From NCBI GenBank assembly GCA_041917875.1, contig JAYRWZ010000254.1, positions 1 through 36,913 on the forward strand: a stretch of DNA of 36,913 nucleotides, in the 5' to 3' direction. Positions 8,896-36,913 of this stretch are shown here, one piece after another. The translations under genes were made by a program, and so were the position numbers. The notes under the pieces are model-generated. The model saw only the letters and a list, made by a program, of their open reading frames with translations. It did not search any database and was not told where the DNA came from. The stretch's first letter is position 1. Every line of letters begins with the position of its first letter. This DNA comes from Chloroflexota bacterium. Lineage in GTDB: Bacteria; Bacteroidota; Ignavibacteria; Kapaibacteriales; UBA961.

Positions 8896-8912
8896 ATCAA
8901 AATTGAGCAATT

Positions 8913-10346: not shown

Positions 10347-10411
10347 AACAGTAAGTATGAACAGTATTCACAATATATCAGAGAAAGTCTGAGAGTAGGA
10401 GGAATAAAGTT

Positions 10412-10846
10412 ATGGAACTACGTTCAGTGCAAAGTGCGAGTCAAATATCAATACTTCAGACAGCAGATATACGTTTGGACTTAGATGAACAAAGAGCACA
10501 AAAAAGTGCTTTGTTTGCGGATATTGAAGGCAATTTAGTCCAAAATGAAAGAACACAGCAGCAAACTGAAGAATCGCGTGAACGCAATGATAAACGAGAA
10601 AATAAGGTAAATGATTTTACCTCATTGGAAGAAACATTGCGCGACGATATTCGCGATTTGTTCAATGAAAAGAATGTTGCGCTGAAATTTAGTTTGGATA
10701 ATGAGACCAAACAACTGATATTGTCGCTGATCGATTCAAATTCCAATGAAATAATCCGGCAAATACCATCCGAATTAGCTTTGAAGATTTTGAAATTTTT
10801 CAATGCAAAATTAGATTCGGGACAGGTCACGGATGCAAAGGTCTGA
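10412..10846 (+). CDS. flaG: FlaG family flagellar protein
   Basis: 144 aa. The C-terminal motif KFSLDNETKQLILSLIDSNSNEIIRQIPSELALKI matches the FlaG signature. A strong SD (AGGAGG) precedes the ATG. Confidence 0.8.
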   Translation: MELRSVQSASQISILQTADIRLDLDEQRAQKSALFADIEGNLVQNERTQQQTEESRERNDKRENKVNDFTSLEETLRDDIRDLFNEKNVALKFSLDNETKQLILSLIDSNSNEIIRQIPSELALKILKFFNAKLDSGQVTDAKV

Positions 10847-11192
10847 GAGAGAAATAGAGTCAATTCTTCTAAGATTAGAAGAAATTGTTGAGCAGATATA
10901 TTTGACCCTTGCGAGTGTCAAGGAATCCGAAGGAATCACCATTGGAGATCAAATAGATCTACTATATGATGAGAAACAAAGGATTATAGATGCACTAATT
11001 CATAAAGTGCAGAATGAGATATCTACATTAGCAGTTGAAGAAAAAAAAATGATGGAAACCAAACTTGTTTCTATATTGCAAAAAGAATCTGTAAATTTGC
11101 AGTCAATGGAGATGTACACTAATCTACTGGCTCATAAGTTACGACAATTGCAAAGACAAAAATCACTTAGAGTTTACCGAGGAGAAAGATAA
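10833..11192 (+). CDS. hypothetical helical protein in the flagellar late operon (FlgN/FliT-like chaperone candidate)
   Basis: 119 aa, predicted all-helical with heptad character, lying between flaG and flgM. It overlaps the flaG end by 14 nt. I recognised no family motif. Confidence 0.5.
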   Translation: MQRSEREIESILLRLEEIVEQIYLTLASVKESEGITIGDQIDLLYDEKQRIIDALIHKVQNEISTLAVEEKKMMETKLVSILQKESVNLQSMEMYTNLLAHKLRQLQRQKSLRVYRGER

Positions 11193-17972: not shown

Positions 17973-18033
17973 GTTCTTTTGTTCTTCGTTAAAACAAGGT
18001 AAATAAAATCATAACCCGAACGAAATCTGTTTG

Positions 18034-19137
18034 CTACGCACCCGTGGCCACAGGTATCGTCACGGTGACGGTGGTGCCGTGGTCAATATGGCTTTCTATG
18101 TGCAAAGTACTATTGCAAATATCCGCTATTTGTTGAGAAATAACAAGCCCTAAACCGGCTCCCTGTTGTTCATATTTGTGTCGTTCAAATTGTACAAAGG
18201 CACCAATATTTTTTATTTGATCTTCCGACATACCGCGTCCTTCATCATGAACGATAAGCACATATTCTTTTTGGTCAGCACTTTTGTTCCCTTTGATGAC
18301 AACGGGGGTTTTGTTCAAAGAAAACTTTATGGCATTGCTTACTAACTCACTCACAAGTTTGCGCAAGTACAAATCACTGATTGCTATGGTTGCTTGTGCA
18401 ATATCGAGCACGCAATCCTGTTCACGCTCATTATAGTGGGGGATGTCCTTCAGATACTGCTCTATGACGGATTGTGTTATTATTGACTTTGCCACTTGAG
18501 GTGAGCGTTGCTCCTGCGGATGTGCAGTCAATACATTAAGTTCAGCGTGCATCACATAATTCTGGGTTAAGTGCAAAAGCCGTTTACCGCCCTCTTGTAT
18601 TTGTAAAACATACTCTTCTAATTCATTGGGTGGTATCTGTTCGCCATCTTCGAGAGTCCACAGTATAAGTTGACAAAAACCGAGCACAGAATTGAGCGGA
18701 GTAATAAATTCATGGGGAATGCTGACCGTAAGTTGTTTGCGAATATCTTCGATTTCACGTCTTGAATTTTTGTGTTTGGTTAAACGCGCTGTTATGGACT
18801 CTATAAGTTCATCAATGCCAAAGGGTTTGGTAATATAGTCATCTGCACCTAAAGCCATGCCCTTGCGTATGTCGTCGCGCTCGGAACGTGCCGTGAGAAA
18901 TATAAAAGGTATGGCAATTGTTTGCGGGGATTCATGAAGCGTTTTGAGCACGCCATAGCCATCCATGCCGGGCAATGATATATCGCACAGTATAATGTCG
19001 GGCGCAGATGTCTGGGCAAGCTCGATTCCTTGAAGGGCAGTGGCAGCTTTCAAAACCTTGAAATCGAAAAGCTCTAAAGAATCGGCGATAAACTCACGAA
19101 GATTATCCTCATCTTCAATAAGTAACACTGTTTTCAT
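18034..19137 (-). CDS. hybrid response regulator-histidine kinase (REC-HisKA-HATPase_c)
   Basis: 367 aa. Receiver motifs (LLIEDED, ILCDISLPGMDG, TARS, KPF) are followed by an H-box (IPHEFITPLNSVLGF) and N/G boxes (SNAIKFS, DEGRGM, GAGLGL). Confidence 0.85.
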   Translation of the reverse strand: MKTVLLIEDEDNLREFIADSLELFDFKVLKAATALQGIELAQTSAPDIILCDISLPGMDGYGVLKTLHESPQTIAIPFIFLTARSERDDIRKGMALGADDYITKPFGIDELIESITARLTKHKNSRREIEDIRKQLTVSIPHEFITPLNSVLGFCQLILWTLEDGEQIPPNELEEYVLQIQEGGKRLLHLTQNYVMHAELNVLTAHPQEQRSPQVAKSIITQSVIEQYLKDIPHYNEREQDCVLDIAQATIAISDLYLRKLVSELVSNAIKFSLNKTPVVIKGNKSADQKEYVLIVHDEGRGMSEDQIKNIGAFVQFERHKYEQQGAGLGLVISQQIADICNSTLHIESHIDHGTTVTVTIPVATGA

Positions 19138-19176
19138 ACGAATCTCCTTGAAAACTAACTTTCTTTTGTAAAGGAC

Positions 19177-20328
19177 TTAGAGTAAAGATAATGCTTGCTC
19201 AATATCTGCGATCAGGTCTTCATTGTCTTCAATGCCGCATGAAAGTCGCAATAAACCGTCGGTTATGCCCAATCGGTCGCGTTTTTCTTTGGGGATGCTG
19301 CCATGTGTCATACTGACCGGATGACAGAGCAAGGATTCTACGCCACCAAGCGATTCTGCTAAAGTGAAGACTTTAATGGCTCGTGCAAATATTTGTGCTT
19401 GATGATATGAACCTACTTCGATGGAAATCATGCCACCAAACCCGGACATTTGTTTTGCAGCCAAGTCATGATGAGGATGCGAAGCCAAACCCGGATACCA
19501 GACGCTATGGACTTTCGGGTGCTGCTCACAAAGTCGAGCTATGGCTTGTGCATTGTGTTGATGTTTTTCCATACGCAATGCGAGTGTTTTGACAGAGCGA
19601 AGCAAAAGCCATGGCTCAAATGGACCGGGAACTGCACCCACAGCATTTTGAAGAAATCCTATCTGCTGCGCAATGTCCTCACGGTCGGTAATGACCACAC
19701 CACTGACCAAGTCTGAGTGCCCGCCTAAATACTTTGTTGCGGAGTGGAGCACGATGTCGGCGCCTAATAATAATGGCTTTTGTAAATATGGTGTGGCAAA
19801 AGTATTGTCCACTACGAGTAATGCCTTGGATTCTTTGGCAATAGTTGCCATAGCCGCAATGTCGGTAATGCGCATCATCGGATTGGTGGGCGTTTCTGTG
19901 TATATCATGGCTGTTTCGGGGCGAATGGCTGATTTTACAGCTTCGATATCAGACATATCCACAGCAGAAAACATATAACCATAACGGCTGAGAACCTTAT
20001 CGAAAAGACGAAAAGTACCGCCATACATATCTTCGGAGCATACGACATGAGCACCGCTGGAAAGCAAACGCATGACGGTGTCAATCGCTGCCATACCACT
20101 GCCGAATGCATAACCCCAACGAGCGCCTTCCAAAGCAGCTACATTTTTTTCCCAAGCAAAACGAGTGGGGTTTTGTGTGCGTGCATATTCAAAACCTTTG
20201 TGCTTGCCAATTTCTTCTTGTGCATATGTCGAAGTCTGAAAAATAGGAGTTGTTACTGATCCTGTGACGGATTCAGGTTCCTGTGCGATATGTATTGCTT
20301 TTGTCGCAAATCCTTTATACATAGTCAT
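19177..20328 (-). CDS. PLP-dependent trans-sulfuration enzyme (cystathionine gamma-synthase/beta-lyase/methionine gamma-lyase family)
   Basis: The start is taken at MTMYKGFATKAIH. Cys/Met-metabolism PLP family motifs TPIFQTSTY and SATKYLGGHSD (PLP lysine) are present. Substrate specificity cannot be assigned from sequence reading alone. Confidence 0.85.
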   Translation of the reverse strand: MTMYKGFATKAIHIAQEPESVTGSVTTPIFQTSTYAQEEIGKHKGFEYARTQNPTRFAWEKNVAALEGARWGYAFGSGMAAIDTVMRLLSSGAHVVCSEDMYGGTFRLFDKVLSRYGYMFSAVDMSDIEAVKSAIRPETAMIYTETPTNPMMRITDIAAMATIAKESKALLVVDNTFATPYLQKPLLLGADIVLHSATKYLGGHSDLVSGVVITDREDIAQQIGFLQNAVGAVPGPFEPWLLLRSVKTLALRMEKHQHNAQAIARLCEQHPKVHSVWYPGLASHPHHDLAAKQMSGFGGMISIEVGSYHQAQIFARAIKVFTLAESLGGVESLLCHPVSMTHGSIPKEKRDRLGITDGLLRLSCGIEDNEDLIADIEQALSLL

Positions 20329-20365
20329 AAATAAATCGGAATAAACAAAAAAAACGGGCTGTTTT

Positions 20366-21415
20366 TTATATATCCACAATAAGTGAAATAAAATGGTCAA
20401 TATTGCCCGTAGCTACTATATCATTCGCAATGGAATAATCAATTTGAAATTTGAAAGGTAAGGAATCAATAGGGGGAACAAGTGAAATACCGCCACCCCA
20501 GCGCGTAAAAGGGAATGCTTTTGTTTGACCGCCTTGTTCTCCTAAGACATTCATACCGCCACGGATACTGAATAATTGTATGGGGGCATACTCAGCACCG
20601 AGCACCACAATAGGTGTATGATCATATTGGGTGAGAACGGCATCAAGGGTGAGAGCTATATATGATTCGGAAGGTAATTCAATGGTCTCGGTTTCGCCGC
20701 GTACATTTTTGCGTACCGTGTATGTTTCTTTTTCCAAACTGAATTCTGTGGCTATACCGGCGCGCAGAGAATAGGGCAAACGCTCCGAAACACTTGTATT
20801 GTTCCATGTCATTGCCCCGAAAAGGTTTTGTGCGGCAATTCCGACAGTAAACAAGTCGGCAATATCAGCTTTTGCTCCCAAATCCATGGTAAACGCCGTT
20901 CCTTTACTGCCCGTACCGCGCAAAGTATTGATCAGATACTTACCGGTTGCACCAACGGCAAAATCACCTGTTCGCCATGTTCCGCCAATAGAAACCGCAT
21001 ATTGCTCACTGCTTAATTCACGAAGAGGGGTGCCGAGTACATTGCGCTCCAAAAAGCTGCCATTCCAATAATGAATAAGTCCTGCTCCAACGGCAAATTG
21101 CTCATTGATGCTTTGTCCGTACGCAAAAGCGGAATGCATACGACCGAATTCTTGCGGCGATGCCATTAAAGAAATTTGCGGGCGATTGGGCAAAAAAGCT
21201 AAGCCGGCAGGATTGTAAAAAATGGCGATTGGCTCATTGGCGATAGCGGTATAAGCTCCGGCTAAACCGACAGCCCGCGCCCCAACAGGCAATTGTAAAT
21301 ATGCCTCAGCCAAATTAGTGCTTGATTGTTGAGCAAAGGCGATTGAACAAAATCCCACACACCCGATACAAAAGTGTAAGATAAATCGGACATGTATGGA
21401 CAATACTTTTCTCAT
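20366..21415 (-). CDS. PorV/PorQ-like outer-membrane beta-barrel protein
   Basis: The start is taken at MRKVLSIHV... (signal peptide ending AFAQQ). The motif VGARAVGLAGAYTAIANEPIAIFYNPAGLAFL resembles the conserved N-terminal strand region of PorV/PorQ/FadL-like T9SS-associated barrels. Its ATG overlaps the upstream stop (ATGA). Confidence 0.5.
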   Translation of the reverse strand: MRKVLSIHVRFILHFCIGCVGFCSIAFAQQSSTNLAEAYLQLPVGARAVGLAGAYTAIANEPIAIFYNPAGLAFLPNRPQISLMASPQEFGRMHSAFAYGQSINEQFAVGAGLIHYWNGSFLERNVLGTPLRELSSEQYAVSIGGTWRTGDFAVGATGKYLINTLRGTGSKGTAFTMDLGAKADIADLFTVGIAAQNLFGAMTWNNTSVSERLPYSLRAGIATEFSLEKETYTVRKNVRGETETIELPSESYIALTLDAVLTQYDHTPIVVLGAEYAPIQLFSIRGGMNVLGEQGGQTKAFPFTRWGGGISLVPPIDSLPFKFQIDYSIANDIVATGNIDHFISLIVDI

Positions 21416-21861
21416 CGTGATAACACTAATTTTTCGGTTAATTGAAAACGATCGCCCCGCACGACACATAAATACATACCTTTGGGCACTGACGATACAT
21501 TAAATTCTCGCTTGAGTGTACCTGCAGAAGCTTCGCCCGAGTAAATGTCCAGTACTTTTTTACCAAGTAAATTGAACAGAGAAATGCGCAGATTGTCATT
21601 GTTCTCAACAAGTTCTACGTTAATCGTATAAACATCATTCTGAGCATACGTATTGACAATGCGGTTTGTGCGTATTGTATCTGCATGGGTACGACGTATG
21701 CTGGCACTATCGCCACTTTTTGTAGGAAACACTACAACTTTACGCGAAGACAATTCACTGTAGCCTTCTTTTTTGGCATAACCATAACGATTCGATTGCG
21801 CTTCCGAAGGAATCATTTGCGCAAGGACACATAAAATCACTATCGTTATATATCGAATCAT
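21412..21861 (-). CDS. small secreted protein consisting mostly of a T9SS C-terminal sorting domain
   Basis: 149 aa. A signal peptide (MIRYITIVILCVLAQMIPSEAQ) and then a CTD-like C-terminus (LRISLFNLLGKKVLDIY...VPKGMYLCVV...). Confidence 0.65.
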   Translation of the reverse strand: MIRYITIVILCVLAQMIPSEAQSNRYGYAKKEGYSELSSRKVVVFPTKSGDSASIRRTHADTIRTNRIVNTYAQNDVYTINVELVENNDNLRISLFNLLGKKVLDIYSGEASAGTLKREFNVSSVPKGMYLCVVRGDRFQLTEKLVLSR

Positions 21862-22035
21862 TCTTTGCTGAAATTGTAACTGTTTTGTGACAAATTACGA
21901 AAAATAAACCGAAAAACCCTTGGTTCCACAATCCGACATACCAAAAATCATGCCTTATATTGCGGTGTGAAAACTTGATGAAAAGAGGTTTGTACGGCTT
22001 CTTTGATTGTATTGACAGTATATGCAGCATTATGT

Positions 22036-24693
22036 TTATTCTGTTTTTATGAAACCATAATGCCATATGCGTACAGCAGAATGTATGGTGAGTGTGTAAT
22101 AGCCCGACGGGAGTAATCTCATATCCACAGTGATTGATTCCGGTGTGGTGTGTAGAATTACTTCACAATGATTGCCGAGTGAATTTGTAAGTGCTAAATT
22201 ATCAATGTGTTGCTCTTGATGAACGGGGATGGTGATAAAGTCTTTGACAGGCGAGGGATATGGACGAAATCCTGATTTCTCCGATGAATGTACCGTTGCT
22301 ATTGGTTGTTTTTCAAATTGTAGCGTAAAAATCCCTGCTGACCGCATGATAATTGAGTCTTGTCCCCATGACACTACATCGCCTCGTACATCCGTAATCA
22401 CCACTTGTTCATCAGCATAACGAGGAATAAGATCAAGTAAACGATGGTGTAGTGTGCAGGGTTTGCTGACATAACCGACAAAACCATTTTCAATGCCACT
22501 GACAGCACATGTAATTCGTTCCGATGATGAGATAATATCATAGTCGGTAAAGGTATCTTTGAAAAGTGTACCATTGGTGAAGAACAGTGCAAAATTGTCA
22601 TAATTTTCCCCATTCCAAATACCGCAGAGTGTGGCATCGCTGACAATATCAAAACCATGTTCTGAAGGTGTGATGGCACGAAAAGAACGCCTATTAGTAT
22701 CGGATTGAATTGCAGCCACGATGTAGGTGTCCTCACCATACTCATATCCAAATGCAGAAGAACCATCGGAAAGTAATTCTATATATGGTATTGTCTTTAG
22801 CGGTGCATAACGCTCTTTAGGTACACTTAATGATGCAAAAGCTGATTGCATGGCAGGGACCGTGCGAATGCGTGCTACGGTATGAATACCTGTGACACCA
22901 TACTGTTCCTCATGGACAGCACTGTCGGCGGATGATCCCTGTTCATCGGGTGTAATGATAAGAGTTTCCACTAAAGCAGAATCCCTTTCCCATTGTGCTA
23001 TGGTTCCGTTTTTCGTGAATTGTATATCTGCTTTACCTGTTTTTTCTGTCCCTTCAAGTATGCCGTTGCCGTGAAGTTGGAAGGTGAATTTTTTTGGTGA
23101 AGGTGAAGAAACTTTATCAGAAGTGAGAAAAAAGCGATTATCAATAACAAAAAACGAACGCTCGATAGATGCATCATTATATGATGTTTGCACAGCAATA
23201 TGCTCAATATGCGGTAAAGAAAAATTATTGGTAAAAAACGCATCTGCACTGCCGGGACTGAGCGGTTGACCTATGGGAGGACCTTGTTCATTAACAAGAA
23301 TCATATTATGGTTCTGAGCATTACCCACTTCTTGTCGGCGGGAATATTGCACATATCCGGCATCAAGGAACATTGGTATGCCTTTATTCCACAGCAAAAA
23401 ACTTGAAGCATCTGCTTGGGAATGTCCCGCACCGCTTGTTCGTGACTGACCTTGTTTGGCAAGTATATGAGTAAACCACGGCGGTGAAAAAGAGGTATCA
23501 GAACGAAAAACCGCGGAGCCTGCTTTGGGGAATATAATTTGACCTGACGGTAATTGCATAAGGGCTTCTGTAGCGGCACAAAGATAATTGGAACGCATAT
23601 CCACCGTAGAAATAAGTTGATTGCTAAGCTCTTTCTCTGTAAATGGATAGATTAAATCAGGTTTGCCGAGTAATGCTGTTTCGGGAAAGCCCATATTCAT
23701 ATAGGTATCGCCGATAGCCGGAAAAGTACCGTCAGGTTGGAGAATGCCGTTTGCCCATTCTACGATTGCCCTATAACGTGAATCATACCAGGGATGGCGA
23801 ATCGATAATGATCCATAACGAAAAACCGTATCGGGCGTGGTATGAGATAAAGCACGAAAAAAAGGGTAAATATTGAGCATTGCATAACGAAAATAATATG
23901 GTCCTTCGGCATAACCGGCGCTGCCATCATCATTGGATTGGCGGTTGGCAGCACGCCAGAAAATATCGTCAATTGCAGTGAGAGATGTCTGTAACCACAA
24001 AGCGGGGGACTCCACCGGTTTATTGGAGCTGTAATCCGAAAGAACGACTGATGCCAAGCCCAAAGCTCCGGCTGTCATTAAAGCATGATTATTTTTGACC
24101 GTACCAAAAAAGGATAACCCCAAAATGGATTTTGTGGCTTCCGTATAAAAATTGTCAGCAAATAATGCTAATGAGGAACGAATTGTTTTTTCTTCATCGG
24201 CGGATAATTGAGATATACCTGCCAGAAAATCATAAGCACAAAGCAGATCAATATATTCTTTGGAATGCCATTGCCAATCTTGATATGCATTGGGTGTGGT
24301 AATACTTATTGTAGGAATATCCGTCCGCATTTCTTGAAAAATACGTATAATTTTTTGGAGTAATTGCTGTTTTTCTTCTTGTGATAAAGGGCGAAGAGAT
24401 GAACCGTCAGATGTGACACCTATATACAAGCAAAAAGCAGCATTTTTTGCAAGCGTTGCTCTTGCTCTTCTGTCTGTTGTTGATGTATTACCGGCAGGTA
24501 CGGAACTTTGCGCTGAAGCATATATTCCCGCAAGCAAAGAAGAATATGTACTTTGTGAAAGAAAGGAAATCACTTTCAATGAATCGTCATGTTTCATCAT
24601 AGCACGCGGATGGCTATTGTCCAAACTCATTGCGGAAATTTGTACACACTGAAATACTAAGGATAATAAAAAAAAGCGCATGAGGAATTTCAT
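22036..24693 (-). CDS. heparinase II/III-family (polysaccharide lyase-like) protein with a T9SS C-terminal sorting domain
   Basis: The start is taken at MKFLMRFFLLSLVFQ (signal peptide). It has an alpha/alpha-toroid-like N-half (NNHALMTAGALGLASVVL), the heparinase II/III motif GHSQADASSFLLWNKGIPMFLDAGY, and a CTD (YPSPVKDFITIPV...LPSGYYTLTI). Confidence 0.75.
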   Translation of the reverse strand: MKFLMRFFLLSLVFQCVQISAMSLDNSHPRAMMKHDDSLKVISFLSQSTYSSLLAGIYASAQSSVPAGNTSTTDRRARATLAKNAAFCLYIGVTSDGSSLRPLSQEEKQQLLQKIIRIFQEMRTDIPTISITTPNAYQDWQWHSKEYIDLLCAYDFLAGISQLSADEEKTIRSSLALFADNFYTEATKSILGLSFFGTVKNNHALMTAGALGLASVVLSDYSSNKPVESPALWLQTSLTAIDDIFWRAANRQSNDDGSAGYAEGPYYFRYAMLNIYPFFRALSHTTPDTVFRYGSLSIRHPWYDSRYRAIVEWANGILQPDGTFPAIGDTYMNMGFPETALLGKPDLIYPFTEKELSNQLISTVDMRSNYLCAATEALMQLPSGQIIFPKAGSAVFRSDTSFSPPWFTHILAKQGQSRTSGAGHSQADASSFLLWNKGIPMFLDAGYVQYSRRQEVGNAQNHNMILVNEQGPPIGQPLSPGSADAFFTNNFSLPHIEHIAVQTSYNDASIERSFFVIDNRFFLTSDKVSSPSPKKFTFQLHGNGILEGTEKTGKADIQFTKNGTIAQWERDSALVETLIITPDEQGSSADSAVHEEQYGVTGIHTVARIRTVPAMQSAFASLSVPKERYAPLKTIPYIELLSDGSSAFGYEYGEDTYIVAAIQSDTNRRSFRAITPSEHGFDIVSDATLCGIWNGENYDNFALFFTNGTLFKDTFTDYDIISSSERITCAVSGIENGFVGYVSKPCTLHHRLLDLIPRYADEQVVITDVRGDVVSWGQDSIIMRSAGIFTLQFEKQPIATVHSSEKSGFRPYPSPVKDFITIPVHQEQHIDNLALTNSLGNHCEVILHTTPESITVDMRLLPSGYYTLTIHSAVRIWHYGFIKTE

Positions 24694-24771
24694 AGATATA
24701 CCTTGTTTTGATAGACCCAAAGGCAAAATTAGCGAAACAAGACGGGTAAACAATATGGTTGTCCTTGTGAT

Positions 24772-26046: not shown

Positions 26047-26607
26047 ATGAAATTACAGAAAAGTTTTTATATACTGTTTTATATAGCAAGTATTGTTGTT
26101 TCGGTTAATACTACCGTTGCCTGTGATGCTATATGCAGAGCAAAAAAGTATGCTTATTTAGGTTGCGATCAACAGACGAATACAAAGAAAACTCTATGCA
26201 CAGATAATCCCCGTGGAGAACCGAATTTCCGTCCTTATAAAAAATGTTTTCCAATGATGAATGTCACGATAGAACCATTTCCAGAGCCGGTACCTGGATG
26301 GTATTTAGATGCTAACGGTGATGGTAATGTTCAGATAAATGAGATTTCTTTTTTTGCTCCACATGCGGAATCTTTAGTGTATGGTGCCCGAGACAATTGG
26401 CCTGCACCATGTACCCCTGACAATCAAAATTGCGATGATTGTCCACTTAAGGTGATATATGCAAAGCGTCGTGAATTAATGCGAGGATTTGATGAATCTC
26501 TTGCAATCACATACCAACCACCTGTTGCAGCAAGTGGGCTACCGGCCTCATGTGTAGTAGATTGTTCCAACGCATATATCGCTTCAATACATTGGATAAC
26601 TTCATGA
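26047..26607 (+). CDS. Cys-rich secreted protein; probably the N-terminal part of a disrupted metzincin gene
   Basis: The ATG at 26047 gives a signal peptide (MKLQKSFYILFYIASIVVSVNTTVA). The protein has many Cys residues. Its TGA stop (26605-26607) overlaps the ATG (26604) of the next ORF. Confidence 0.55.
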   Translation: MKLQKSFYILFYIASIVVSVNTTVACDAICRAKKYAYLGCDQQTNTKKTLCTDNPRGEPNFRPYKKCFPMMNVTIEPFPEPVPGWYLDANGDGNVQINEISFFAPHAESLVYGARDNWPAPCTPDNQNCDDCPLKVIYAKRRELMRGFDESLAITYQPPVAASGLPASCVVDCSNAYIASIHWITS

Positions 26608-27173
26608 ATAAGAACGCTATCGGGGTTCCTAATACATTTTTTTATACAAATAGAAGCTACCCAGGTGATCTGGAATGGTACGATTTTCAATCTGTGATTT
26701 ACCATGAAATGGGGCATTGGCTCGGTTTTGGTGACGGACAGGAACAATGCAATTCATCATATACAGGTGTCATGCAAACACCTTTGGATGTTAATACAAA
26801 TCGTAATCTTAGTGATGATGATAGATGTATGTTCCAGAAACTATATTGCTGTGGTCCGAATGGTGCAACAAATGTCGATGAAGAAGAAACTGACAATACT
26901 GGTGTCGTTTTATCAAATGGGTTACACTTATCGCCCAATCCATTTAATACGAACATAATTATCAAAGGCATTCCTTCTGAGGAGTTTTCATCATATACAC
27001 TTGATATTACGACAATTACAGGTCAAAATGTCTATCATGCCGTATATGAACAACATAATAATGATATAAATATTGATACCCGAACATTGCCGGTGGGTAC
27101 TTATATGGTTATGGTAACAACTCACACTTTCCCACATCAATATTTTAAAGCCATCATTACCAAAATGCCGTAA
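26604..27173 (+). CDS. metzincin-type zinc metalloprotease catalytic motif plus T9SS C-terminal sorting domain (lacks its own signal peptide)
   Basis: HEMGHWLGFGD (HExxHxxGxxD), a Met-turn-like GVMQTP, a matrixin-like LSDDDRCMFQKLY, and a CTD (LSPNPFNTNIIIKG...LPVGTYMVMV). Frame 3 is open from 26496, overlapping the upstream ORF. Confidence 0.65.
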   Translation: MNKNAIGVPNTFFYTNRSYPGDLEWYDFQSVIYHEMGHWLGFGDGQEQCNSSYTGVMQTPLDVNTNRNLSDDDRCMFQKLYCCGPNGATNVDEEETDNTGVVLSNGLHLSPNPFNTNIIIKGIPSEEFSSYTLDITTITGQNVYHAVYEQHNNDINIDTRTLPVGTYMVMVTTHTFPHQYFKAIITKMP

Positions 27174-29182: not shown

Positions 29183-29371
29183 ATGACATTTCATCAAAGA
29201 CAGACTAAGCTCGAAAAATTTGAAACACTTGTCAATACTGGTAAGGACTATCCCCAAGCAGAAATACTAATACACAAACCCTTAGATTTACTCTATGCTG
29301 CAGAGGATAATAGTGGTGGTGAAATCAAAGGTAAAGGAAAAATGCGAACATATTTTTTGGAGAGAGCATGA
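29183..29371 (+). pseudogene. 62-codon head-to-tail remnant of a TPR-adenylate cyclase paralogue
   Basis: The N-terminus (KLEKFETLVNTGKDYPQAEILI) parallels the cyclase-1 N-terminus (AVEELEALSKTGNDYAQAETQA). The C-terminus (GGEIKGKGKMRTYFLERA) parallels the cyclase C-termini (GEMEIKGKGTMRTYFLERV). Its TGA overlaps the next ATG, as at the cyclase-1/cyclase-2 junction. Confidence 0.6.
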
Positions 29372-29373
29372 CA
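29348..29373 (+). repeat. 26-nt gene-junction repeat, copy 1 (ACATATTTTTTGGAGAGAGCATGACA)
   Basis: Matches 31366-31391 at 25 of 26 positions (C/T difference at position 20). Both copies span a stop/start ATGA overlap. Confidence 0.85.
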
Positions 29374-31389
29374 CCCAATGAACTACAAACAGCAGTCGAA
29401 GAACTCGAAGCACTTTCAAAAACAGGCAACGACTATGCACAAGCAGAAACGCAAGCACGGCTGCTTCTTGCAGAAGAGAGTATTGCCAATGAACCCGAAC
29501 TCCACTGCAAGGTACTTCTTGCTTTGAGCAGTTCGCTTTGGCGGTACGGTTTGTCACAAGAGGCATTGCCTTTTGCAGAGCAGGCACTTTTTCTTGCACA
29601 AACAAATCAGTTTAAAGACCCTGAAGCATGGGCTTTAGGTACAATCGGGAGCATATATGGAACACTTTCGGATTATCAACGTGCATTGGAGTACTTTGGC
29701 AAGTCGCTTGCCGCCCACGAAGAACTTGGTAATAAAAGTAGAGCAGCAACAGCTATCAAAAATATCGGGGTTGTGTATGAACATCTCTCTAATTACCCAT
29801 ACGCATTGGAGTACTATGGTAAAGCGCTCGCCGCACACGAAGAACTCGGCGAGAAAAGTGCAACTGCAGAAATTATTGGAAATATCGGGAATGTATATCG
29901 GGATATCTCGGACTACTCACACGCATTGGAGTACTATACTAAAGCGCTTTCAGCACTCGAAGAACTCGGTGATAAAAGCAGCACATCTAGAGTTATCAGC
30001 AATATCGGAAGCGTATATAGTCATCTCTCTGACTACCCGCGAGCGTTGGAGTACCATGGGAAAGCCCTCACCATGTCTGAAGAACTTGGCGATAAACATG
30101 TTGTGGCTGTTTTAACTGGACAAATCGGAAGCGTATATAGTCATCTCTCCGAGTACACTCGGGCATTAGAGTGCCATGGGAAAGCCCTCGCCATATTCGA
30201 AGAAATCGGCTTGAAAAGGTACGTAGCAAATTGTTTGGGAAGTATAGCGGGCGTGTATTTCCACCTCGCAGATTATCAGAATGCCTTGGAGTACGTTACT
30301 AAAGCGCTCGCGTTCTATGAAGAAATCGGCAGCAAGAACGGCATTGCAACGAATCTTGGCAATATCGGGTTGGTGTATAGTACAGAAGAATTTGATGGAT
30401 ATGATTTTACAAAAGCAGAAGAGTATTTGCTGAAAGCATTTGCAATGAATGAGGAGATTGGAGCGAAAAAAGAACTCTATGGGAATCACAAGAATCTTTC
30501 CGACCTTTACAAAAGGCAGGAACGATGGGAAGAGTTTGCCATTCACCTTGAGAAATACCACAAACTAAAAGAACAAGTCAAAAGTGAAGAAGCCAAGAAG
30601 AAAGCCGAACAATTGGACTACGAACGCAAGACCGCCGAGCGCGAAAAGCAACTTGCCGTTGAGCGAGCTGAAGCAGCAACAGTAAAACGTATCTTGCATA
30701 ATACACTTCCGCCTATCATCGCCGACCGCCTCATCAACAACGAAACCTTCATTGCCGACAGTTACCCGAATGTCTCTGTTCTCTTTATGGATTTGGTGAA
30801 CTTCACACGCATTGCCGCTATTATTCCACCACGCCATCTTATCTATGTACTTAATACCATTTTCAGCAATGCCGATGCTGTGATGGAAAAACACGGCTTG
30901 GAGAAAATCAAAACCATTGGCGATGCCTACATGGCAGTTGCCGGCGCACCTGTTCATCAAGACGACCACGCACAACGTGCAGCACAAGCCGCCATAGATG
31001 TGATGGAAGCAATGAATAATTTATCTGTCATTATTCCCGAAGAACTTGGCGAAACAAGTTGGACAGAGCAGGTTGGCGAAATACAAGTACGCATAGGTCT
31101 TCACTGCGGCGAAGCCATTGGTGGTGTTATCGGCGACAAGAAATTCACCTTTGATTTATGGGGTGATGCCGTCAACACGGCAGCGCGTATGGAAGGTCAC
31201 GGCGAGGCAGGAAGGATTCATGTTAGCGAGGCGTTTATGCGGGCTGCTACTGAACATAGTCGAAGTGAGGTCGTAAAGACAGGGCATGCCCTGTCTTTAC
31301 ACACAGCAACCTTCTCGTTTTCTTCCCGCGGCGAAATGGAAATAAAAGGCAAAGGCACGATGAGGACATATTTTTTGGAGAGAGTATGA
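29368..31389 (+). CDS. TPR-repeat sensor fused to a class III adenylate cyclase (cyclase 1)
   Basis: 673 aa. Six 40-aa TPR_12-like units, an ERWEEF box plus coiled coil, then a CYCc domain (VSVLFMDLVNFT, KTIGDAYMAVAGAP, RIGLHCGEAIGGVIG, FDLWGDAVNTAARME, EIKGKGTMRTYFL). The Lys in KTIGD and the Asp in FDLWG indicate ATP specificity. Confidence 0.9.
   Translation: MTPNELQTAVEELEALSKTGNDYAQAETQARLLLAEESIANEPELHCKVLLALSSSLWRYGLSQEALPFAEQALFLAQTNQFKDPEAWALGTIGSIYGTLSDYQRALEYFGKSLAAHEELGNKSRAATAIKNIGVVYEHLSNYPYALEYYGKALAAHEELGEKSATAEIIGNIGNVYRDISDYSHALEYYTKALSALEELGDKSSTSRVISNIGSVYSHLSDYPRALEYHGKALTMSEELGDKHVVAVLTGQIGSVYSHLSEYTRALECHGKALAIFEEIGLKRYVANCLGSIAGVYFHLADYQNALEYVTKALAFYEEIGSKNGIATNLGNIGLVYSTEEFDGYDFTKAEEYLLKAFAMNEEIGAKKELYGNHKNLSDLYKRQERWEEFAIHLEKYHKLKEQVKSEEAKKKAEQLDYERKTAEREKQLAVERAEAATVKRILHNTLPPIIADRLINNETFIADSYPNVSVLFMDLVNFTRIAAIIPPRHLIYVLNTIFSNADAVMEKHGLEKIKTIGDAYMAVAGAPVHQDDHAQRAAQAAIDVMEAMNNLSVIIPEELGETSWTEQVGEIQVRIGLHCGEAIGGVIGDKKFTFDLWGDAVNTAARMEGHGEAGRIHVSEAFMRAATEHSRSEVVKTGHALSLHTATFSFSSRGEMEIKGKGTMRTYFLERV
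29644..30363 (+). repeat. six tandem 120-nt (40-codon) TPR units inside cyclase 1
   Basis: Unit consensus IG.VY..LSDY..ALEY..KAL...EELG.K. Units 4 and 5 share an identical 27-nt stretch (AATCGGAAGCGTATATAGTCATCTCTC at 30002-30028 and 30122-30148). Confidence 0.85.
31273..31300. repeat. perfect 28-nt palindrome inside the cyclase-1 coding sequence
   Basis: GTAAAGACAGGGCATGCCCTGTCTTTAC equals its own reverse complement. It encodes VKTGHALSLH in an insertion just before the final RGEMEIKGKG hairpin of the cyclase domain. Confidence 0.9.
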
Positions 31390-31391
31390 CA
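31366..31391 (+). repeat. 26-nt gene-junction repeat, copy 2 (ACATATTTTTTGGAGAGAGTATGACA)
   Basis: See 29348-29373. Confidence 0.85.
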
Positions 31392-33155
31392 AATGAAGAG
31401 ATTATCGAAAACCTCAATACTGCTGAAACAGCTATCAGCACAGGCAATTTCGACTTAGCTCATATTCTTGCTACACAGCTTCGGAATGAAAAATACGCAG
31501 AAAATCATCGCTGTGATATAGACCGCATCATAGGAATTGTAGCAATGAAACGTGGAGATTATCCGAGTGCCCTTGAGTATTTAAACGAAGCTTTAGCAGT
31601 ATGTGAGCATTCGGGTGAACAACACGATGTTGCCGAGCTCACAGATATTATAGGCAGCATATACCGACAACTTGCCAATTACGCAAAAGCACTGGAGTAT
31701 TATACAAAAGCTCTTTTGGTGTGCGAAGAACATAATATACCTGCCGGAGTTATTCGTTGTACGGGCAATATAGGTCTGGTTTATTTTCACCTTGCCGACT
31801 ATTCTAAGGCATTAGAGTATTTAAGCCGTACCTATACCTCATACGAAAAATTAGGAATGAAACAGGGTGCTGCCACCGCATTAAGTAACATGGGTGCAGT
31901 ATATGAAAACCTGCCGGATTATCCTAAAGCATTAGAGTGTTATGATACAGCACTCCGTATTAATGAAGAGCTTGGCTTGAAGCCAAACGTTGCCCTTATT
32001 ACCGGTAATATGGGATTGATTTATTTCTCTGTTCAGGATTACCATCAAGCACGTGAGTATTTGGAACGCGCGCTTGCATTATATCAGGAGTTGGGTATGA
32101 AAAAGGAAGTAGCACGTATGATTCATAACCTTGGTGGCTACTATGCAAAGTTGCATAATCCGATGTATAATGTTCAAAAGGCAGAAGAATACTTATGGAA
32201 GGCAGTTACTATAAACGAAGAGTTGGGAACAAAAGAAGCCCTCTATATGAATTACCAAAATCTTGCTATGTTATATGAACAGGATGAACGTTGGCAACAG
32301 GCATTAGAACACTATAAAAAGTATTATGCATTAGAAAAGGAAGTGCATAATCAAGAAGTAAAAAGAAATGCCGAGTTGTATGATGCCGAGCGTAAAACTG
32401 TGGAAAAGGAAAAACAGTTAGCGTTAGCAAAAGAGCGAGAACATATTTTAAATAATATTCTTCCGGAAGATATTACAACTCGTCTCATTAATGGTGAGAA
32501 CCCCATTGCTGACCACTTTGATTCTGTCTCAATTCTTTTTATGGATATTATTAAATTCACCGAACTTTCTGCGAAGATTTCCGCACGTCAGCTTGTGTAT
32601 TTACTCAATCATATTTTTACTATAGCTGATGGAATAATGCGAGAGTTCGGTTTAGAAAAAATCAAAACCATTGGCGATGCCTATATGGCAGTTGCGGGTG
32701 CCCCTGTTGTTCAGGAAGATCACGCACAACGTGCAGCACTTGCCGCCCTAAAATTGCTCAACACAATGCAAAACCTTGTCGTTACTTTTCCGGCAGAATA
32801 TAGCGATAGAAGCTGGATAGAATCTCTATCCGAAATACAGGTACGTATTGGTTTACATTGCGGTCCGGCTGCGGCAGGCGTTGTTGGCGAGAACAAATTT
32901 CTCTACGATTTATGGGGCGATGCGGTGAACACAGCAAGCAGAATGGAAAGCCACGGCGAAGCAGGAAAAATACATTGTTCGGAAGAATTTGTCAATCAAT
33001 TGACAATGGATAATGGAAAATGGATAATGAAACAAGACGCAGAAAAAATATTATTATCAATTGACAATTATCAATTATCCATCATCCCCCGCGGTGAAAT
33101 GGAAATAAAAGGCAAAGGAACAATGCGGACATATTGGTTGGAAAAGAATGTATGA
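31386..33155 (+). CDS. TPR-repeat sensor fused to a class III adenylate cyclase (cyclase 2)
   Basis: 589 aa with the same architecture as cyclase 1: 40-aa TPR units, an ERWQQ box, a coiled coil and a CYCc domain with VSILFMDIIKFT, KTIGDAYMAVAGAP and YDLWGDAVNTASRME. Its ATG overlaps the cyclase-1 TGA. Confidence 0.9.
   Translation: MTNEEIIENLNTAETAISTGNFDLAHILATQLRNEKYAENHRCDIDRIIGIVAMKRGDYPSALEYLNEALAVCEHSGEQHDVAELTDIIGSIYRQLANYAKALEYYTKALLVCEEHNIPAGVIRCTGNIGLVYFHLADYSKALEYLSRTYTSYEKLGMKQGAATALSNMGAVYENLPDYPKALECYDTALRINEELGLKPNVALITGNMGLIYFSVQDYHQAREYLERALALYQELGMKKEVARMIHNLGGYYAKLHNPMYNVQKAEEYLWKAVTINEELGTKEALYMNYQNLAMLYEQDERWQQALEHYKKYYALEKEVHNQEVKRNAELYDAERKTVEKEKQLALAKEREHILNNILPEDITTRLINGENPIADHFDSVSILFMDIIKFTELSAKISARQLVYLLNHIFTIADGIMREFGLEKIKTIGDAYMAVAGAPVVQEDHAQRAALAALKLLNTMQNLVVTFPAEYSDRSWIESLSEIQVRIGLHCGPAAAGVVGENKFLYDLWGDAVNTASRMESHGEAGKIHCSEEFVNQLTMDNGKWIMKQDAEKILLSIDNYQLSIIPRGEMEIKGKGTMRTYWLEKNV
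32995..33082. repeat. self-complementary, heptamer-repetitive insert in cyclase 2 at the position equivalent to the cyclase-1 palindrome
   Basis: A 13-nt direct repeat ATCAATTGACAAT occurs at 32995-33007 and 33056-33068. ATGGATAAT occurs at 33006-33014 and 33020-33028, with its reverse complement ATTATCCAT at 33074-33082. Heptamer-like runs are present (ATGGATA ATGGAAA ATGGATA; CAATTAT CAATTAT). Confidence 0.7.
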
Positions 33156-33580
33156 GCCACGATTTGCGTGATTATACGATGGACAATATACAAGAAATAT
33201 CTCAATAATCAGGGTAATCAATACATCACAAAAATCACAGCTCAGACAATAATTGCTGCAAACGACTTGCGGGATTATAGGATTGACAGGGGATAGCCGT
33301 TGGGGAAGTGGTCCTGACGGCTTCTGTGTTTTACATTCTTACGTATCAAGAAAAGCAATCATGAAAGTCTCAACAATCTCAATCGTAGTATAGATTTGTA
33401 TGATTCTTAATGTTCTTTCTGATTTATAGGCATGAAGTATATCGCTTCGTTGAGGTTTTGATGTATTTTTGTTCCCGATATAAAACAAAAGCAATTAACC
33501 GGAGTTGTAAACGATAGTTTTTGCATTCTAAATAAGCGCAACTGTCGGTTCGATTGCAACAACAATAAAGTAATAAAACT

Positions 33581-35521
33581 ATGGAAAGTCAAGAGTTAAT
33601 AGAAAGAGTGGAAGAAATACAAAAACTCATTGAGCAAGAATATCAGTATAGGCAGGCAGAAGCTCTGGCTCTTGATATTGTTGAAAGTATTGATCCGGAA
33701 GACAAGTCTGAGATATTTGCTCGAGTATTGTTCCTTTTATCGCAATGTCTTTGGCGCAATGGATTACCCCAAAATGCCTTGACTTATGCAAAGCAATCTC
33801 TTGATATTGCTAGTAAACACCACTACCGTGATTTGCAGGCAAGAGCCACAGGGATAATGGGAACATTGTATAGCAATTTGTCAAACTTTCCAAAATCTTT
33901 AGAGTGTTATGAGATGTCTCTTCGTATAGATGAGGAAGTTGGAAACAAAGGTCGTATTGCATCAACGTATGGCAATATGGGAATTGTCTATAGTAATTTG
34001 TCAGACTTCGTACATGCTCAACTCTATTTTCAAAAATCACTTCTTCTACACCCAGAGATAAAAAATGAACAAGGTATTGCCGGAAATTTACTTAATATTG
34101 GTAATCTCTATATTCACCTGTCGGATTATAAAACAGCATTAGAGTATTTTCACAAAGCATTGGAAATTGCATTGAAAACCGGTAATAAAAGGGGAGAAGC
34201 CACTTGTGTCGGGTCTCTTGGTAATGTGTACGTGAAATTAGAAGATTATGATACTGCTCTGTCGTATTATCGAAAATCTTTAGTTATTGCGGAGGAAAAT
34301 GATAATAAAAAAAGTATGGCAACAAGTCTTGGCAATATTGGAAGTGTGTATGTGCAGTTATCTTGCTACAAGGAAGCACTCGAGAATTTTTATAAAGCAT
34401 TGCACTACTGTGAAATCAGCAATAATAGATACGGAGAATCATTGTGGAAAGGAAATATAGGCGCAATTTATTTGCGTGAGAATTTTGAAGGATACGATTG
34501 TAAAAAAGGTGAAAAATACTTACTTGAATCCATAGAATTTTTTCGCGAGCATGGGGTAAAGCTGCATGAATATGAAATGAGAAAATTTCTTGCCGATGTG
34601 TATGAGCGAGAGAAACGTTGGGAAGAATTTGTAGTTCAAATTAAACGATACCATGAACTAAAAGAACAAGTGTATTCTGAAGAGGTAAAAAAGATCATCC
34701 TCGGCAATGAATATACGCAAATTATAGCTGAAAAAGAAAAAGAATTAGCGATTGAGAAAACTCGGATTCAAGAACGTGAGCTTGTCATGAAAGAGTTGGA
34801 AAGGTTAAATACAAAACTTGTTGAAGCAGATCAAGCAAAAAATGATATTCTCGGCATTGTTGTCCATGATTTAAAAAACCCGCTTACGGTAATTCAGTTA
34901 AAGTCCGATGTGTTGCAAAGAAGAAATATATATTTGACGAAAGATCAACTTGTGTCAATCGGCGAAAGTATAGCCGTAGTAGTTCAACACATGAACAAGA
35001 TGATATCGAATCTGCTTGACATAAATGCCTTGGAGTCCGGAAAAATGACTATGAAAATTGTATCAACCGATATTGCATTATTATTGCAGGAAGCAATTAC
35101 TTCTCATAGTGATAATGCATCAATAAAAAATATCGCTGTTTTTACGGAAATTCCTGATGAAATACCATTTGTACTTGCTGATCCGGAGGGTGTGTACCAA
35201 GTTGTCGAAAATCTTTTGTCCAATGCAATTAAATTTTCACCACCTGAACTTACTGTAAAAGTTACATGTGAGGTTGAAGAACAATACATTTCACTTTCAG
35301 TAAAAGATTATGGTCCGGGTATAACATCGGAAGACAAGAAAAAGTTATTCGGCAAATTCCAGAAATTGTCGGCGCGTCCAACAGCCGGAGAATATTCCAC
35401 AGGGTTGGGATTGTCTATTGCAAAAACAATAACCGAACAAATGGGGGGTACCCTGGAATGCGAAAGTGTTGTCGGAGAAGGTGCTAATTTTATTCTTCGC
35501 CTGAGACGATCGGAATTATAA
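33581..35521 (+). CDS. TPR-repeat sensor histidine kinase (same sensor scaffold, HisKA-HATPase_c output)
   Basis: 646 aa. The N-terminal helix, 40-aa TPR units, KRWEEF box and YHELKEQVYSEEVKK linker parallel the cyclases. These are followed by an H-box (VVHDLKNPLTVI) and N/G boxes (LLSNAIKFS, DYGPGI, GLGLSIAK). Confidence 0.9.
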   Translation: MESQELIERVEEIQKLIEQEYQYRQAEALALDIVESIDPEDKSEIFARVLFLLSQCLWRNGLPQNALTYAKQSLDIASKHHYRDLQARATGIMGTLYSNLSNFPKSLECYEMSLRIDEEVGNKGRIASTYGNMGIVYSNLSDFVHAQLYFQKSLLLHPEIKNEQGIAGNLLNIGNLYIHLSDYKTALEYFHKALEIALKTGNKRGEATCVGSLGNVYVKLEDYDTALSYYRKSLVIAEENDNKKSMATSLGNIGSVYVQLSCYKEALENFYKALHYCEISNNRYGESLWKGNIGAIYLRENFEGYDCKKGEKYLLESIEFFREHGVKLHEYEMRKFLADVYEREKRWEEFVVQIKRYHELKEQVYSEEVKKIILGNEYTQIIAEKEKELAIEKTRIQERELVMKELERLNTKLVEADQAKNDILGIVVHDLKNPLTVIQLKSDVLQRRNIYLTKDQLVSIGESIAVVVQHMNKMISNLLDINALESGKMTMKIVSTDIALLLQEAITSHSDNASIKNIAVFTEIPDEIPFVLADPEGVYQVVENLLSNAIKFSPPELTVKVTCEVEEQYISLSVKDYGPGITSEDKKKLFGKFQKLSARPTAGEYSTGLGLSIAKTITEQMGGTLECESVVGEGANFILRLRRSEL

Positions 35522-35566
35522 GGTGTTGATTGAGCGTGTTTTATAGTTTTATACCTAAGCATATTT

Positions 35567-35821
35567 GTCACTGTGATGTGGAGTGCAATTCTCTCACAAC
35601 ATGAAGAAATTTTGCGATGTGAAGTATATGATGAATGTTCGGGAATTTCTGATGCAGAATGCGATTTGGTGTTCCAACCTTATGCTAAGTGATCTGCTTT
35701 GCCTACAGGAGGTGACAGTGGGACCGAGGGTGGTGAAAAATTTAGTCGAAGTATTACATGGAAAAATATGGTTTGAAAATCATGAAAAAGTGTAACCTTC
35801 TTTGTCGAATTACCGCCATAA
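35567..35821 (+). pseudogene. frameshifted 3' remnant of a histidine kinase HATPase_c domain
   Basis: Three frames together give HATPase-like segments: ILSQHEEILRCEVYDECSGISDAECDLVFQPYAK*, then VGPRVVKNLVEVLHGKIWFENHEK, then SVTFFVELPP*. No HisKA or sensor part lies upstream, and at least two frame changes are needed. Confidence 0.6.
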
Positions 35822-36041
35822 CATCTGTGGTGTAAAAGTAATGTCAATGGGAAAAGGTTTTTATTTGATCCGGTATTTATACCAAATTACGTATTTGTAA
35901 AGATATTCATGATTGATACCCTTCATTTGCAAGGATTTGAAATGCTGAATACTCTAAAGGTACAGAATTTCGACTAAAGTTTAGAACATATTGAAAAGTC
36001 AGTACATAGAATGAAATTACTAAAAAAACAGGTGTAATTTT

Positions 36042-36913
36042 CGGAGACAAGATGACAGCAGAAGAGATACAGACTAAATATCAAGAGGCAATGGCTTTAG
36101 CAATGTCTGAAAGTAAGGCGGACGCTTTGAACTCACTTGCATGGCAACTGCGATTATTGGGTCAGTATGATGACTCCATGTCTCTATGTGAAGAAGCAAT
36201 GTTAATAGCTGAAGAATGTTCAAGTACATCTACTGCCGGTAAAATATTAAATACAATTGCCAATATTGCTGCTGATCGAGGAGATATTCCAAATGCTTTG
36301 CTGTATTATCAAAAAGCAATACTTAATCTTGAACATGGTAATGACAGTTATTGGTTGGGAGCTGTATTGGGGAATTGTGGAAATGTTTACAAAAATCTCC
36401 ATGAATATGATCTTGCTCTTGAGTATTATCACAAAGCACTGCTACTTTATGAAAAAGAAGGTATAAAACATCATATACCCGTATGGTTGAGCAATATAGG
36501 GAATGTGTACCATAATTTAAGAGAATATAGTGTTGCTTTAGAATTTCATACGAAAGCACTTTCTATCAGGGAAGAGTTGGGGCAAAGAGCGGAAATGGGA
36601 ACGGTGTTTTCTAATATCGGTAATGCGTATTTTGAAATAGGAGAATATGATAAAGCCATAGAGTATTATTCTCAATCCTTGGAAGTAGATTCGGATAATA
36701 TGTTTACTATGGATATTGCAGTAGATTATGGCAATCTTGGTCGTGTATTTGCCAAACAAGACTATAATGGGTATGACCCCGATAAAGCAGAAGAGTATCT
36801 CATCAAAGCGGGGGGGATTTTTGAAACCCTCGGCAATAAACAATATCAGTTCATATTTCATAAAATGCTTGCTGATCTTTACAGAAATCAGCAACGTTGG
36901 GAGGAATCGGATA
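36042..36913 (+). CDS. TPR-repeat sensor protein, fourth paralogue of the array (3' end and output domain lie outside the window)
   Basis: I translated this by hand: ATG at 36042 after GGAGA, with no stop through base 36913. It has 40-aa TPR units (IGNVYHNLREYSVALEFHTKALSIREELGQRAEMGTVFSN...), a terminal unit with YNGYDPDKAEEYLIKA, and a QRWEES box. It is missing from the ORF track because it runs off the window. Confidence 0.85.

Follow-up and report, generated by a model that had tools for sequence, protein, structure and literature searches.

A tandem array of predicted TPR-gated adenylate cyclases with a rare histidine kinase variant in a Kapabacteria-like bacterium

The final part of a 36,913-nucleotide (nt) stretch of DNA, from a genome deposited as Chloroflexota bacterium and placed by GTDB in the Kapaibacteriales (assembly GCA_041917875.1, contig JAYRWZ010000254.1, positions 1–36,913; hereafter the window), holds the first 7.7 kb (29183–36913, + strand) of a tandem array of soluble paralogous signaling enzymes. 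Our analysis favors the interpretation, to which we assign a probability of roughly 0.75, that these are dimeric adenylate cyclases gated by tetratricopeptide repeats (TPRs), together with a rare kinase variant, in which many sensors would act through one messenger. Duplication, internal deletion, the splitting of genes, and gain of TPR units are the likely modes of change in the array, and recombination in the linker between sensor and output probably shapes it as well.

Four genes belong to the array in the window. Gene A (29368–31389, +; 673 residues) and gene B (31386–33155, +; 589 residues) share one build, a TPR sensor followed by a class III cyclase, and match TPR_12 and Guanylate_cyc in Pfam. 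Gene C (33581–35521, +; 646 residues) joins an A-type TPR sensor to HisKA and HATPase_c and matches TPR_12 and both kinase domains, and gene D (36052–36913, +) is present with its first 287 codons, matching TPR domains only up to the window end. The window is a whole contig, the database listing protein A on one of 36,913 bases, and D is therefore cut by an assembly end, just past its QRWEE motif (residues 281–285); what is left of it comprises the TPR sensor and the beginning of the junction module. The open reading frames (ORFs) and Pfam domains bear out the first-pass annotation in describing same-strand genes with a TPR sensor, a junction, and a linker in tandem, but position 36042, which it gave as the beginning of the fourth gene, is not a start, and the open frame begins at the ATG at 36052. 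In gene A, an N-terminal helix is followed by six regular 40-residue TPR units (residues 87–326); such units repeat every 120 nt in the array genes. The junction module (roughly residues 316–389, with KAEEYL at 349–354 and ERWEE, the RW box, at 385–389) leads into a linker helix, the transducer-element motif ILHNTLP (442–448), and the class III cyclase domain (about 464–671). In gene B, ERWQQ (301–305) and ILNNILP (354–360) both precede the cyclase, and in gene C, KGEKYL (309–314) and KRWEE (345–349) mark the junction, after which the linker helix runs into HisKA. Directly upstream of A lies remnant 1 (29183–29371, +), a 62-residue in-frame ORF, and 4-nt ATGA stop/start overlaps connect it to A and A to B, as had been noted before. 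Because none of the proteins A–D contains a hydrophobic segment (the maximum Kyte–Doolittle mean over 19 residues is 1.59), all four are taken to be soluble and cytoplasmic.

The cyclase domains of A and B score 173.6 and 176.4 bits, respectively, against Guanylate_cyc (PF00211; cut-off 21.9), which places them in class III. The catalytic residues are D475, K515, D519, D596, N603, and R607 in A and D387, K427, D431, D508, N515, and R519 in B. Both domains contain the metal-coordinating Asp pair (D475/D519 in A and D387/D431 in B) and the Asn/Arg pair (N603/R607 and N515/R519), and the adenine pair, K515/D596 in A and K427/D508 in B, aligns with EKIKTIGSTYMA and YDIWGNTVNVASRM of AC5 C2. All catalytic residues and the Lys/Asp pair are invariant in an alignment of 100 homologs. 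Guanylate cyclases carry Glu/Cys where adenylate cyclases have Lys/Asp, and the spacing of the catalytic residues in A and B presumably matches that of Rv1625c. The adenine-specifying pair had already been identified as the KTIGD Lys and the (F/Y)DLWG Asp, and cyclic AMP (cAMP) named as the predicted product; the alignment to AC5 and the invariance among family members agree with the former, and the catalytic residues together with the Lys/Asp pair support the latter. A and B are thus predicted from their residues to be class IIIa-like adenylate cyclases that produce cAMP, and each would be expected to act as a homodimer. The best solved relatives of the domain are mammalian AC5 and AC9 and mycobacterial Cya/Rv1625c. 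Moreover, the ILHNTLPPIIADRLI segment aligns with LLHNILPKDVAAHFL of AC5, which identifies the cyclase transducer element characteristic of classes IIIa and IIIb; this element couples helical or coiled-coil linkers to class III cyclases (PMC5995499). For B, AlphaFold2 with an alignment of 100 homologs gave a model (mean predicted local distance difference test score of 91.3) that contains 15 TPR helices, a single helix that extends from the RW box (residues 303–358), a short helix (361–368), and the cyclase fold. Foldseek matched its cyclase part to 5o5k (template modeling [TM] score of 0.90) and its TPR part to the peptide-binding domains of LGN/Pins (TM up to 0.83). The output of gene D had been listed as unknown. 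Its ortholog P0001, at the related locus L001, is 90% identical over the shared 157 residues and goes on past the TPR sensor into this linker and then a class III cyclase domain, and the output of D is on this ground almost certainly a class III cyclase as well.

A profile hidden Markov model (HMM) of the junction, covering the last degenerate TPR, the RW box, and the linker, was built from seven family members. It matched each gene once, directly upstream of the output domain, with 167 bits for A, 154 for B, 159 for C, and 94 for the truncated D. It reached at least 78 bits in 120 of 120 database homologs of A, and the scores ranged overall from 78 to 169 bits, including A–D and three cyclase-bearing matches of D, whereas none of 52 unrelated TPR proteins scored above 41 bits. 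To judge from these scores, the RW box, with the final degenerate TPR before it (GYD..KAEEYL.KA) and the helix after it, makes up a family-specific module, and the genes belong to a TPR–junction–cyclase family, defined here by TPR units, junction, and linker helix upstream of the output. Searched against the database, the 120-column junction alignment gave no match at E ≤ 1e-5, for which the word-index selection of candidates is probably to blame. Identity is 31–45% among the sensor halves of the window genes and 56% between the two cyclase halves. Over half its length, the D sensor shares 39% identity with TPR proteins of Microcystis, about what it shares with A (38–39%); by sequence comparison, the likeness among the canonical TPR units of the window genes is no greater than that among consensus-type TPR proteins. 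The view that the sensor halves resemble each other more than unrelated TPR proteins do therefore holds for the junction and linker (94–167 versus at most 41 bits) but not for the canonical units. The motifs first given for the scaffold also needed revision. The box given as (E/Q)RW(E/Q)E is present in all four genes, but its true form is [E/Q/K]RW[E/Q][E/Q], as KRWEE in C and ERWQQ in B illustrate; the TG.DY.QAE helix ascribed to each gene is complete in A and remnant 1 but not elsewhere; and the GYD ascribed to the last degenerate unit of each gene is absent from B. Between the Trp of the RW box and the Pro of the transducer element, 50 of 85 family proteins have a distance of 61 residues, and the other lengths fall mostly into the 7-spaced series 54/61/68 and 44/51/58/65. 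Such discrete lengths would fit a register-sensitive signaling helix. Within gene A, two adjacent 120-nt TPR units (30004–30090 and 30124–30210) are 84% identical in nucleotide sequence, other units being 61–70% identical, and this pair suggests a relatively recent internal repeat duplication.

Gene C is a sensor histidine kinase of the HisKA type. Its scores are 37.3 bits against the HisKA cut-off of 26.9 and 91.1 bits against the HATPase_c cut-off of 26.4, with His429 in the H box HDLKNPL, the N box NLLSNAIKF at 544–552, G1 DYGPGI at 576–581, and G2 GLGLSI at 608–613. An exact-protein look-up of C in the database found no match. Its L001 ortholog is 52% identical in the sensor and 62% in the kinase, and the next-best sensor match is A (36% over 392 residues), a likeness that takes in the N-terminal LSQxLWRxGL region. 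Because of this ortholog and this next-best match, C is, on the sequence comparison, an old A-type sensor bearing a kinase. The kinase version is rare. At the nucleotide level, C (window 33925–35494) is only 67% identical to L001, and B has no close counterpart there (38% amino acid identity); the window segment 35589–36913, comprising the receiver-kinase remnant described below, intergenic DNA, and D, is 81% identical.

Downstream of C, 35582–35827 (+) matches residues 326–411 of a 411-residue L001 protein composed of a receiver domain, an H-box-like dimerization and histidine phosphotransfer (DHp) domain, and HATPase_c. The match amounts to 51% amino acid and 73–81% nucleotide identity and is interrupted by in-frame stops and frameshifts. 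This segment had been described as a decayed TPR copy (35567–35821), but it is the pseudogenized tail, about the last 86 codons, of a receiver–histidine-kinase gene that was a likely partner of C. In L001 and in another locus, L019, an intact copy of the receiver-kinase gene directly follows the TPR-kinase (the two copies are 47% identical); in the window, this gene has lost about 1.1 kb from its 5′ side. We consider it probable that the TPR-kinase normally works with this downstream gene, which has been destroyed in the present genome, and the remnant near 35.6 kb can be annotated as marking the loss of the usual receiver-kinase neighbor. The statement that no cognate response regulator lies in the window needs a qualification, since a receiver partner was once there and has been destroyed. 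A different receiver–HisKA–HATPase_c hybrid kinase gene (18034–19137, −; 366 residues) is located 10 kb upstream of the array. It was considered as a stand-in for the lost receiver-kinase and rejected, as it shares no more than 24% identity with the L001 protein, in the ATPase region.

In remnant 1, an A-type N-terminal helix runs straight into the final ~17 cyclase codons, with the C-terminal tail GEIKGKGKMRTYFLERA. Nt 29–82 of the remnant share 76% identity with the 5′ end of A and nt 139–189 share 84% with the 3′ end, which agrees with its earlier description as a degraded array copy; by these matches, it is an array member with an in-frame internal deletion of about 1.9 kb. The duplication and deletion proposed for the array are likewise evident from this copy in the window and from split or truncated members and variable copy number in relatives. 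In a neighbor-joining tree of the junction module, paralogs of different genomes interleave, with some genome-specific pairs, and many paralogs are therefore older than the sampled genomes. Among the cyclases, junction and cyclase are weakly congruent, their distances being only weakly correlated (r = 0.13) and nearest neighbors agreeing in 12 of 53 cases. On average, the junction is 38% and the cyclase domain 57% identical.

Gene A itself is a mosaic. Its sensor is 57% identical to L005_9950 and 48% to L003_9992, and its output 67% and 82%, respectively, with a switch near residues 395–405 in the linker. Residues ~405–545 (window ~30580–31000), which take in the linker, the transducer element, and the N-terminal half of the cyclase, are 95–100% identical to L003_9992, L004_9809, and L006_9779, the proteins of three loci in two genomes (L003 and L006 from SSF3 and L004 from Ca. 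Kapaibacterium), and the sensors of these proteins are only 40–50% identical. Against L005_9950, A is 50–68% identical over ~405–515 and about 90% beyond. The DNA of A is 84% identical to that of L003 over nt 1022–1869, the 3′ part of the gene; such DNA identity under 95–100% protein identity points to strong constraint, not to very recent transfer. Collectively, these patterns suggest modular exchange among the cyclases near the start of the linker helix.

The family extends far beyond the window. In a scan of one genome per species, the closest relatives (55–64% amino acid identity) were found in metagenome genomes labeled Bacteroidota SSF3, Ca. Kapaibacterium, Chlorobiota, Bacteroidetes SZAS-91, and Ignavibacteria; the NCBI taxonomy places Kapaibacterium within Bacteroidota. 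At E ≤ 1e-60, A has more than 1,107 matches among database proteins, the best 120 of which all combine TPR and Guanylate_cyc, and database homologs are already named "tetratricopeptide repeat protein" or "adenylate/guanylate cyclase domain-containing protein." Related metagenome genomes carry about 8–12 family genes per 22 kb. Fetched loci contain 11 same-strand TPR-cyclase genes in each of L009 and L018, nine in L010, and eight in each of L008, L011, and L017. L009, L011, and L018 lie on one contig, JADJXV010000024.1, and hold about 30 family genes together; a ~48-kb run on this contig, with one unfetched 4-kb gap inside, comprises 22. Across all loci, we counted 74 intact TPR–junction–cyclase ORFs, about four TPR-kinases, 11 truncated or split pieces, and two receiver-kinase genes, with 3 to 12 or more family copies per fetched locus and ATGA overlaps at 33 of the 75 consecutive gene junctions. 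Cyclase and kinase are the only outputs among these approximately 80 family genes. Split members, in which a TPR-only ORF is followed by a cyclase-only ORF, occur at L018 3810–5773 and 16179–18325, L017 751–2694, L011 9986–12073 and 14577–16456, and L009 19789–21692, and are probably frameshifted or decaying copies. Pairs of an ORF with no Pfam match and a cyclase-only ORF in L018 and L017 were considered as a new sensor type; they are split TPR-cyclase genes. From this distribution, the family is characteristic of Kapabacteria/Ignavibacteria-like bacteria and its arrays are clade-wide, and the expansion is not locus-specific as had been suggested. The literature searched contained no paper on Kapabacteria or Ignavibacterium with adenylate cyclase and none on a build of N-terminal TPR, signaling helix, transducer element, and class IIIa cyclase, which appears to be unstudied; the papers on TPR-cyclases that came up concern the unrelated architecture of Rv0386 and LA_4008.

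Each protein has an LGN/Pins-like TPR superhelix capped by the junction module, from whose RW box one helix of ~55 residues leads either to the transducer element and class IIIa adenylate cyclase (A and B, and D by orthology) or directly to the DHp helix of the kinase (C). The proteins would most likely act as homodimers, and a peptide or protein segment would bind in the TPR channel. Binding could alter the packing or register of the paired linker helices and, via the transducer element or DHp, switch cAMP synthesis or autophosphorylation. As the paralogs differ chiefly in the sensor, many inputs would converge through the array on a single cAMP pool.

Several points weigh against this interpretation. 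The ligand, the dimer, and the enzymatic activity stand as predictions from sequence, and the cyclase output of D rests on the ortholog P0001, not on this genome. A Fourier test of hydrophobic periodicity in the linker gave no clean heptad signal; its coiled coil is inferred from a long predicted helix and the discrete lengths. The TPR positions of greatest variability are 2, 3, 12, and 13 of helix A, as well as 25 and 38, and variability at exposed TPR positions is expected of any repeat protein and does not prove ligand diversification. The mosaic structure of A could partly reflect uneven evolutionary rates. Furthermore, no cAMP receptor or cNMP (cyclic nucleoside monophosphate)-binding protein was found among the window ORFs scanned, as the first-pass annotation had observed of cNMP-binding effectors.

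It is conceivable, although we regard it as unlikely, that the TPR mega-arrays are a diversifying receptor repertoire, in which each paralog would recognize one peptide or protein, self or invader, and all would converge on cAMP; on that equally doubtful extension, new specificities would arise by turnover of TPR units and recombination in the linker helix. A more specific proposal, which we judge improbable, is that the arrays form a conflict or immunity repertoire, with diversified TPR sensors that detect invader proteins and fire a nucleotide messenger by Pycsar- or CBASS-type logic. The variable sensors and conserved outputs, reflected in the difference between junction and cyclase mean identities given above, the tandem birth-and-death evolution of the arrays, and weak matches of A (54.8 bits) and B (53.4 bits) to the PycC HMM are all compatible with it. 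In addition, YhcG/DUF1016 PDDEXK nuclease genes (PADLOC candidate PDC-S02, E 2.6e-145) lie between TPR-cyclase genes in L017 (1–754 and 6847–7893) and L019 (17720–18736), with 4-nt overlaps at four of five visible boundaries. However, the enzyme is a canonical class IIIa cyclase with an invariant adenine Lys/Asp pair, and its Guanylate_cyc score of ~175 bits is far above that for PycC. The window and fetched loci contain no adjoining gene for a cNMP-activated effector, a TIR protein, a pore-forming protein, or a STAND NTPase, and the arrays are chromosomal and clade-wide rather than patchy. In Pycsar, a pyrimidine-specific cyclase is encoded beside a cNMP-binding effector; the weak PycC matches, the Lys/Asp pair, and the lack of an effector gene in the window or fetched arrays place A and B outside the Pycsar cyclases.

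The first-pass annotation had instead proposed an expansion specific to this locus, in which one sensor is still being shuffled onto alternative outputs and hetero-oligomers could couple cAMP to phosphorelay signaling. The junction and linker common to cyclase and kinase members, the A-type sensor of C, and the derivation of A from two paralog types all agree with exchange, and the halves of cyclase paralogs indeed have different nearest relatives. The kinase/cyclase exchange, however, is old and not ongoing, because an ortholog of C is present in L001 and only about 4 of roughly 80 family genes are TPR-kinases; as that ortholog is kept beside a receiver-kinase gene, the swap predates these genomes. 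The proposal fares poorly in other respects as well, since the family and its arrays are found in many genomes, outputs other than cyclase and kinase are absent among the approximately 80 family genes, sensor halves that are 31–45% identical imply no recent duplication here, and the hetero-oligomers are purely conjectural; we therefore hold it to have little chance of being correct. Finally, that the sensor halves share only a generic, consensus-like TPR_12 resemblance and no common scaffold is highly improbable: the sensor of D is as close to Microcystis proteins as to A, but the gap in junction HMM scores between the family and generic TPR proteins, and the constant position of the junction directly before the output, refute the idea for junction and linker and leave it valid for the canonical TPR units only.

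We thus retain TPR-gated dimeric adenylate cyclases with a rare kinase variant as the preferred reading. The proteins themselves are ordinary, being modular sensor-cyclases and a sensor-kinase made of known parts, and it is the scale and organization of the arrays in the clade, not the window locus itself, that is notable. With dozens of sensors on a near-invariant output and linkers of discrete lengths, the arrays could serve as natural experiments and help to show how, by way of a single helix, a repeat-protein sensor controls a cyclase or kinase.

Other features of the window were also recorded. A terminator-like hairpin (33295–33322, +; 11 pairs, 6 of them G–C, then a T-rich tail), identified by consensus match only, sits 140 nt past the stop of B and probably ends a transcription unit of remnant 1, A, and B; the window contains six terminator-like sites against 5.0 expected by shuffling, which is chance level. 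Sigma-70 promoter-like sites number 39, against 23.8 ± 5.1 in shuffles, and lie mostly on the − strand; agreement with a consensus does not show function, and the lineage may use other promoter types. The G+C content is 42–45% at 18001–24000 and 41–45% over gene A, compared with 35–39% over most other window DNA. Upstream of the array, at 7469–11192 (+) and also at 13686–16196, 21412–21861, 22036–24753, and 26550–27173, a flagellar cluster (flagellin, FliS, FliD, and FlaG) lies beside several proteins with type IX secretion C-terminal sorting domains. Flagella and type IX sorting domains fit an Ignavibacteria/Kapabacteria-like lineage, not typical Bacteroidia. Just upstream of the flagellar cluster, a SpoIIE/PP2C-type phosphatase gene (6001–7293, +; 430 residues) encodes another soluble signaling enzyme.

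Comparing the array proteins with known systems, the best cyclase match is to mycobacterial Cya/Rv1625c (5o5k, 4p2f, 7yz9, and 7yzk) and the mammalian membrane adenylate cyclases, with E 2.5e-42 and the TM score of 0.90 for 5o5k. Both groups place a helical linker and transducer element before the catalytic core, and the presence of the six catalytic residues, including the Lys/Asp pair, on one chain of the array cyclases would lead one to expect a homodimer with two active sites. However, Cya and the mammalian enzymes are driven by a six-helix membrane domain, whereas the array proteins have no membrane segment, would be driven by a soluble N-terminal TPR superhelix, and are encoded in large tandem arrays. 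Gene C resembles FimS of Porphyromonas gingivalis (NF053520), in which TPRs are likewise followed by HisKA and HATPase_c. This is the best NCBIfam match of C, with 180.1 bits over residues 163–641, and A, B, and D also match it in their TPR and junction parts; since 180 bits is far below the equivalog cut-off of 600, C is not a FimS ortholog. In contrast to FimS, C lies inside a cyclase array beside a receiver-kinase gene, and no fimbrial genes or FimR-type regulator are nearby. Rv0386 of Mycobacterium tuberculosis and LA_4008 of Leptospira consist of an N-terminal cyclase, an AAA/STAND ATPase, and C-terminal TPRs (PMC3789758). They share with the array proteins the combination of a soluble class III cyclase with TPR repeats, but the latter have no ATPase domain and carry the TPRs upstream of the cyclase, joined via the signaling helix, and thus fall outside the Rv0386 type. 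The best structural match of the TPR half is LGN/Pins (GPSM2; 4wnd, TM 0.83), with 40-residue repeats of the same class, and GPSM-like proteins are among the sequence matches of D. Although LGN/Pins is a eukaryotic scaffold with no enzymatic output, the likeness suggests, by analogy, extended peptide binding in the channel; it is not evidence of homologous function. Large paralog families of sensor-linked adenylate cyclases are present in rhizobia, mycobacteria, and Leptospira, where the genes are dispersed and the sensor domains are of many types. The array family, in contrast, keeps to one architecture and is laid out in head-to-tail arrays with frequent 4-nt overlaps.

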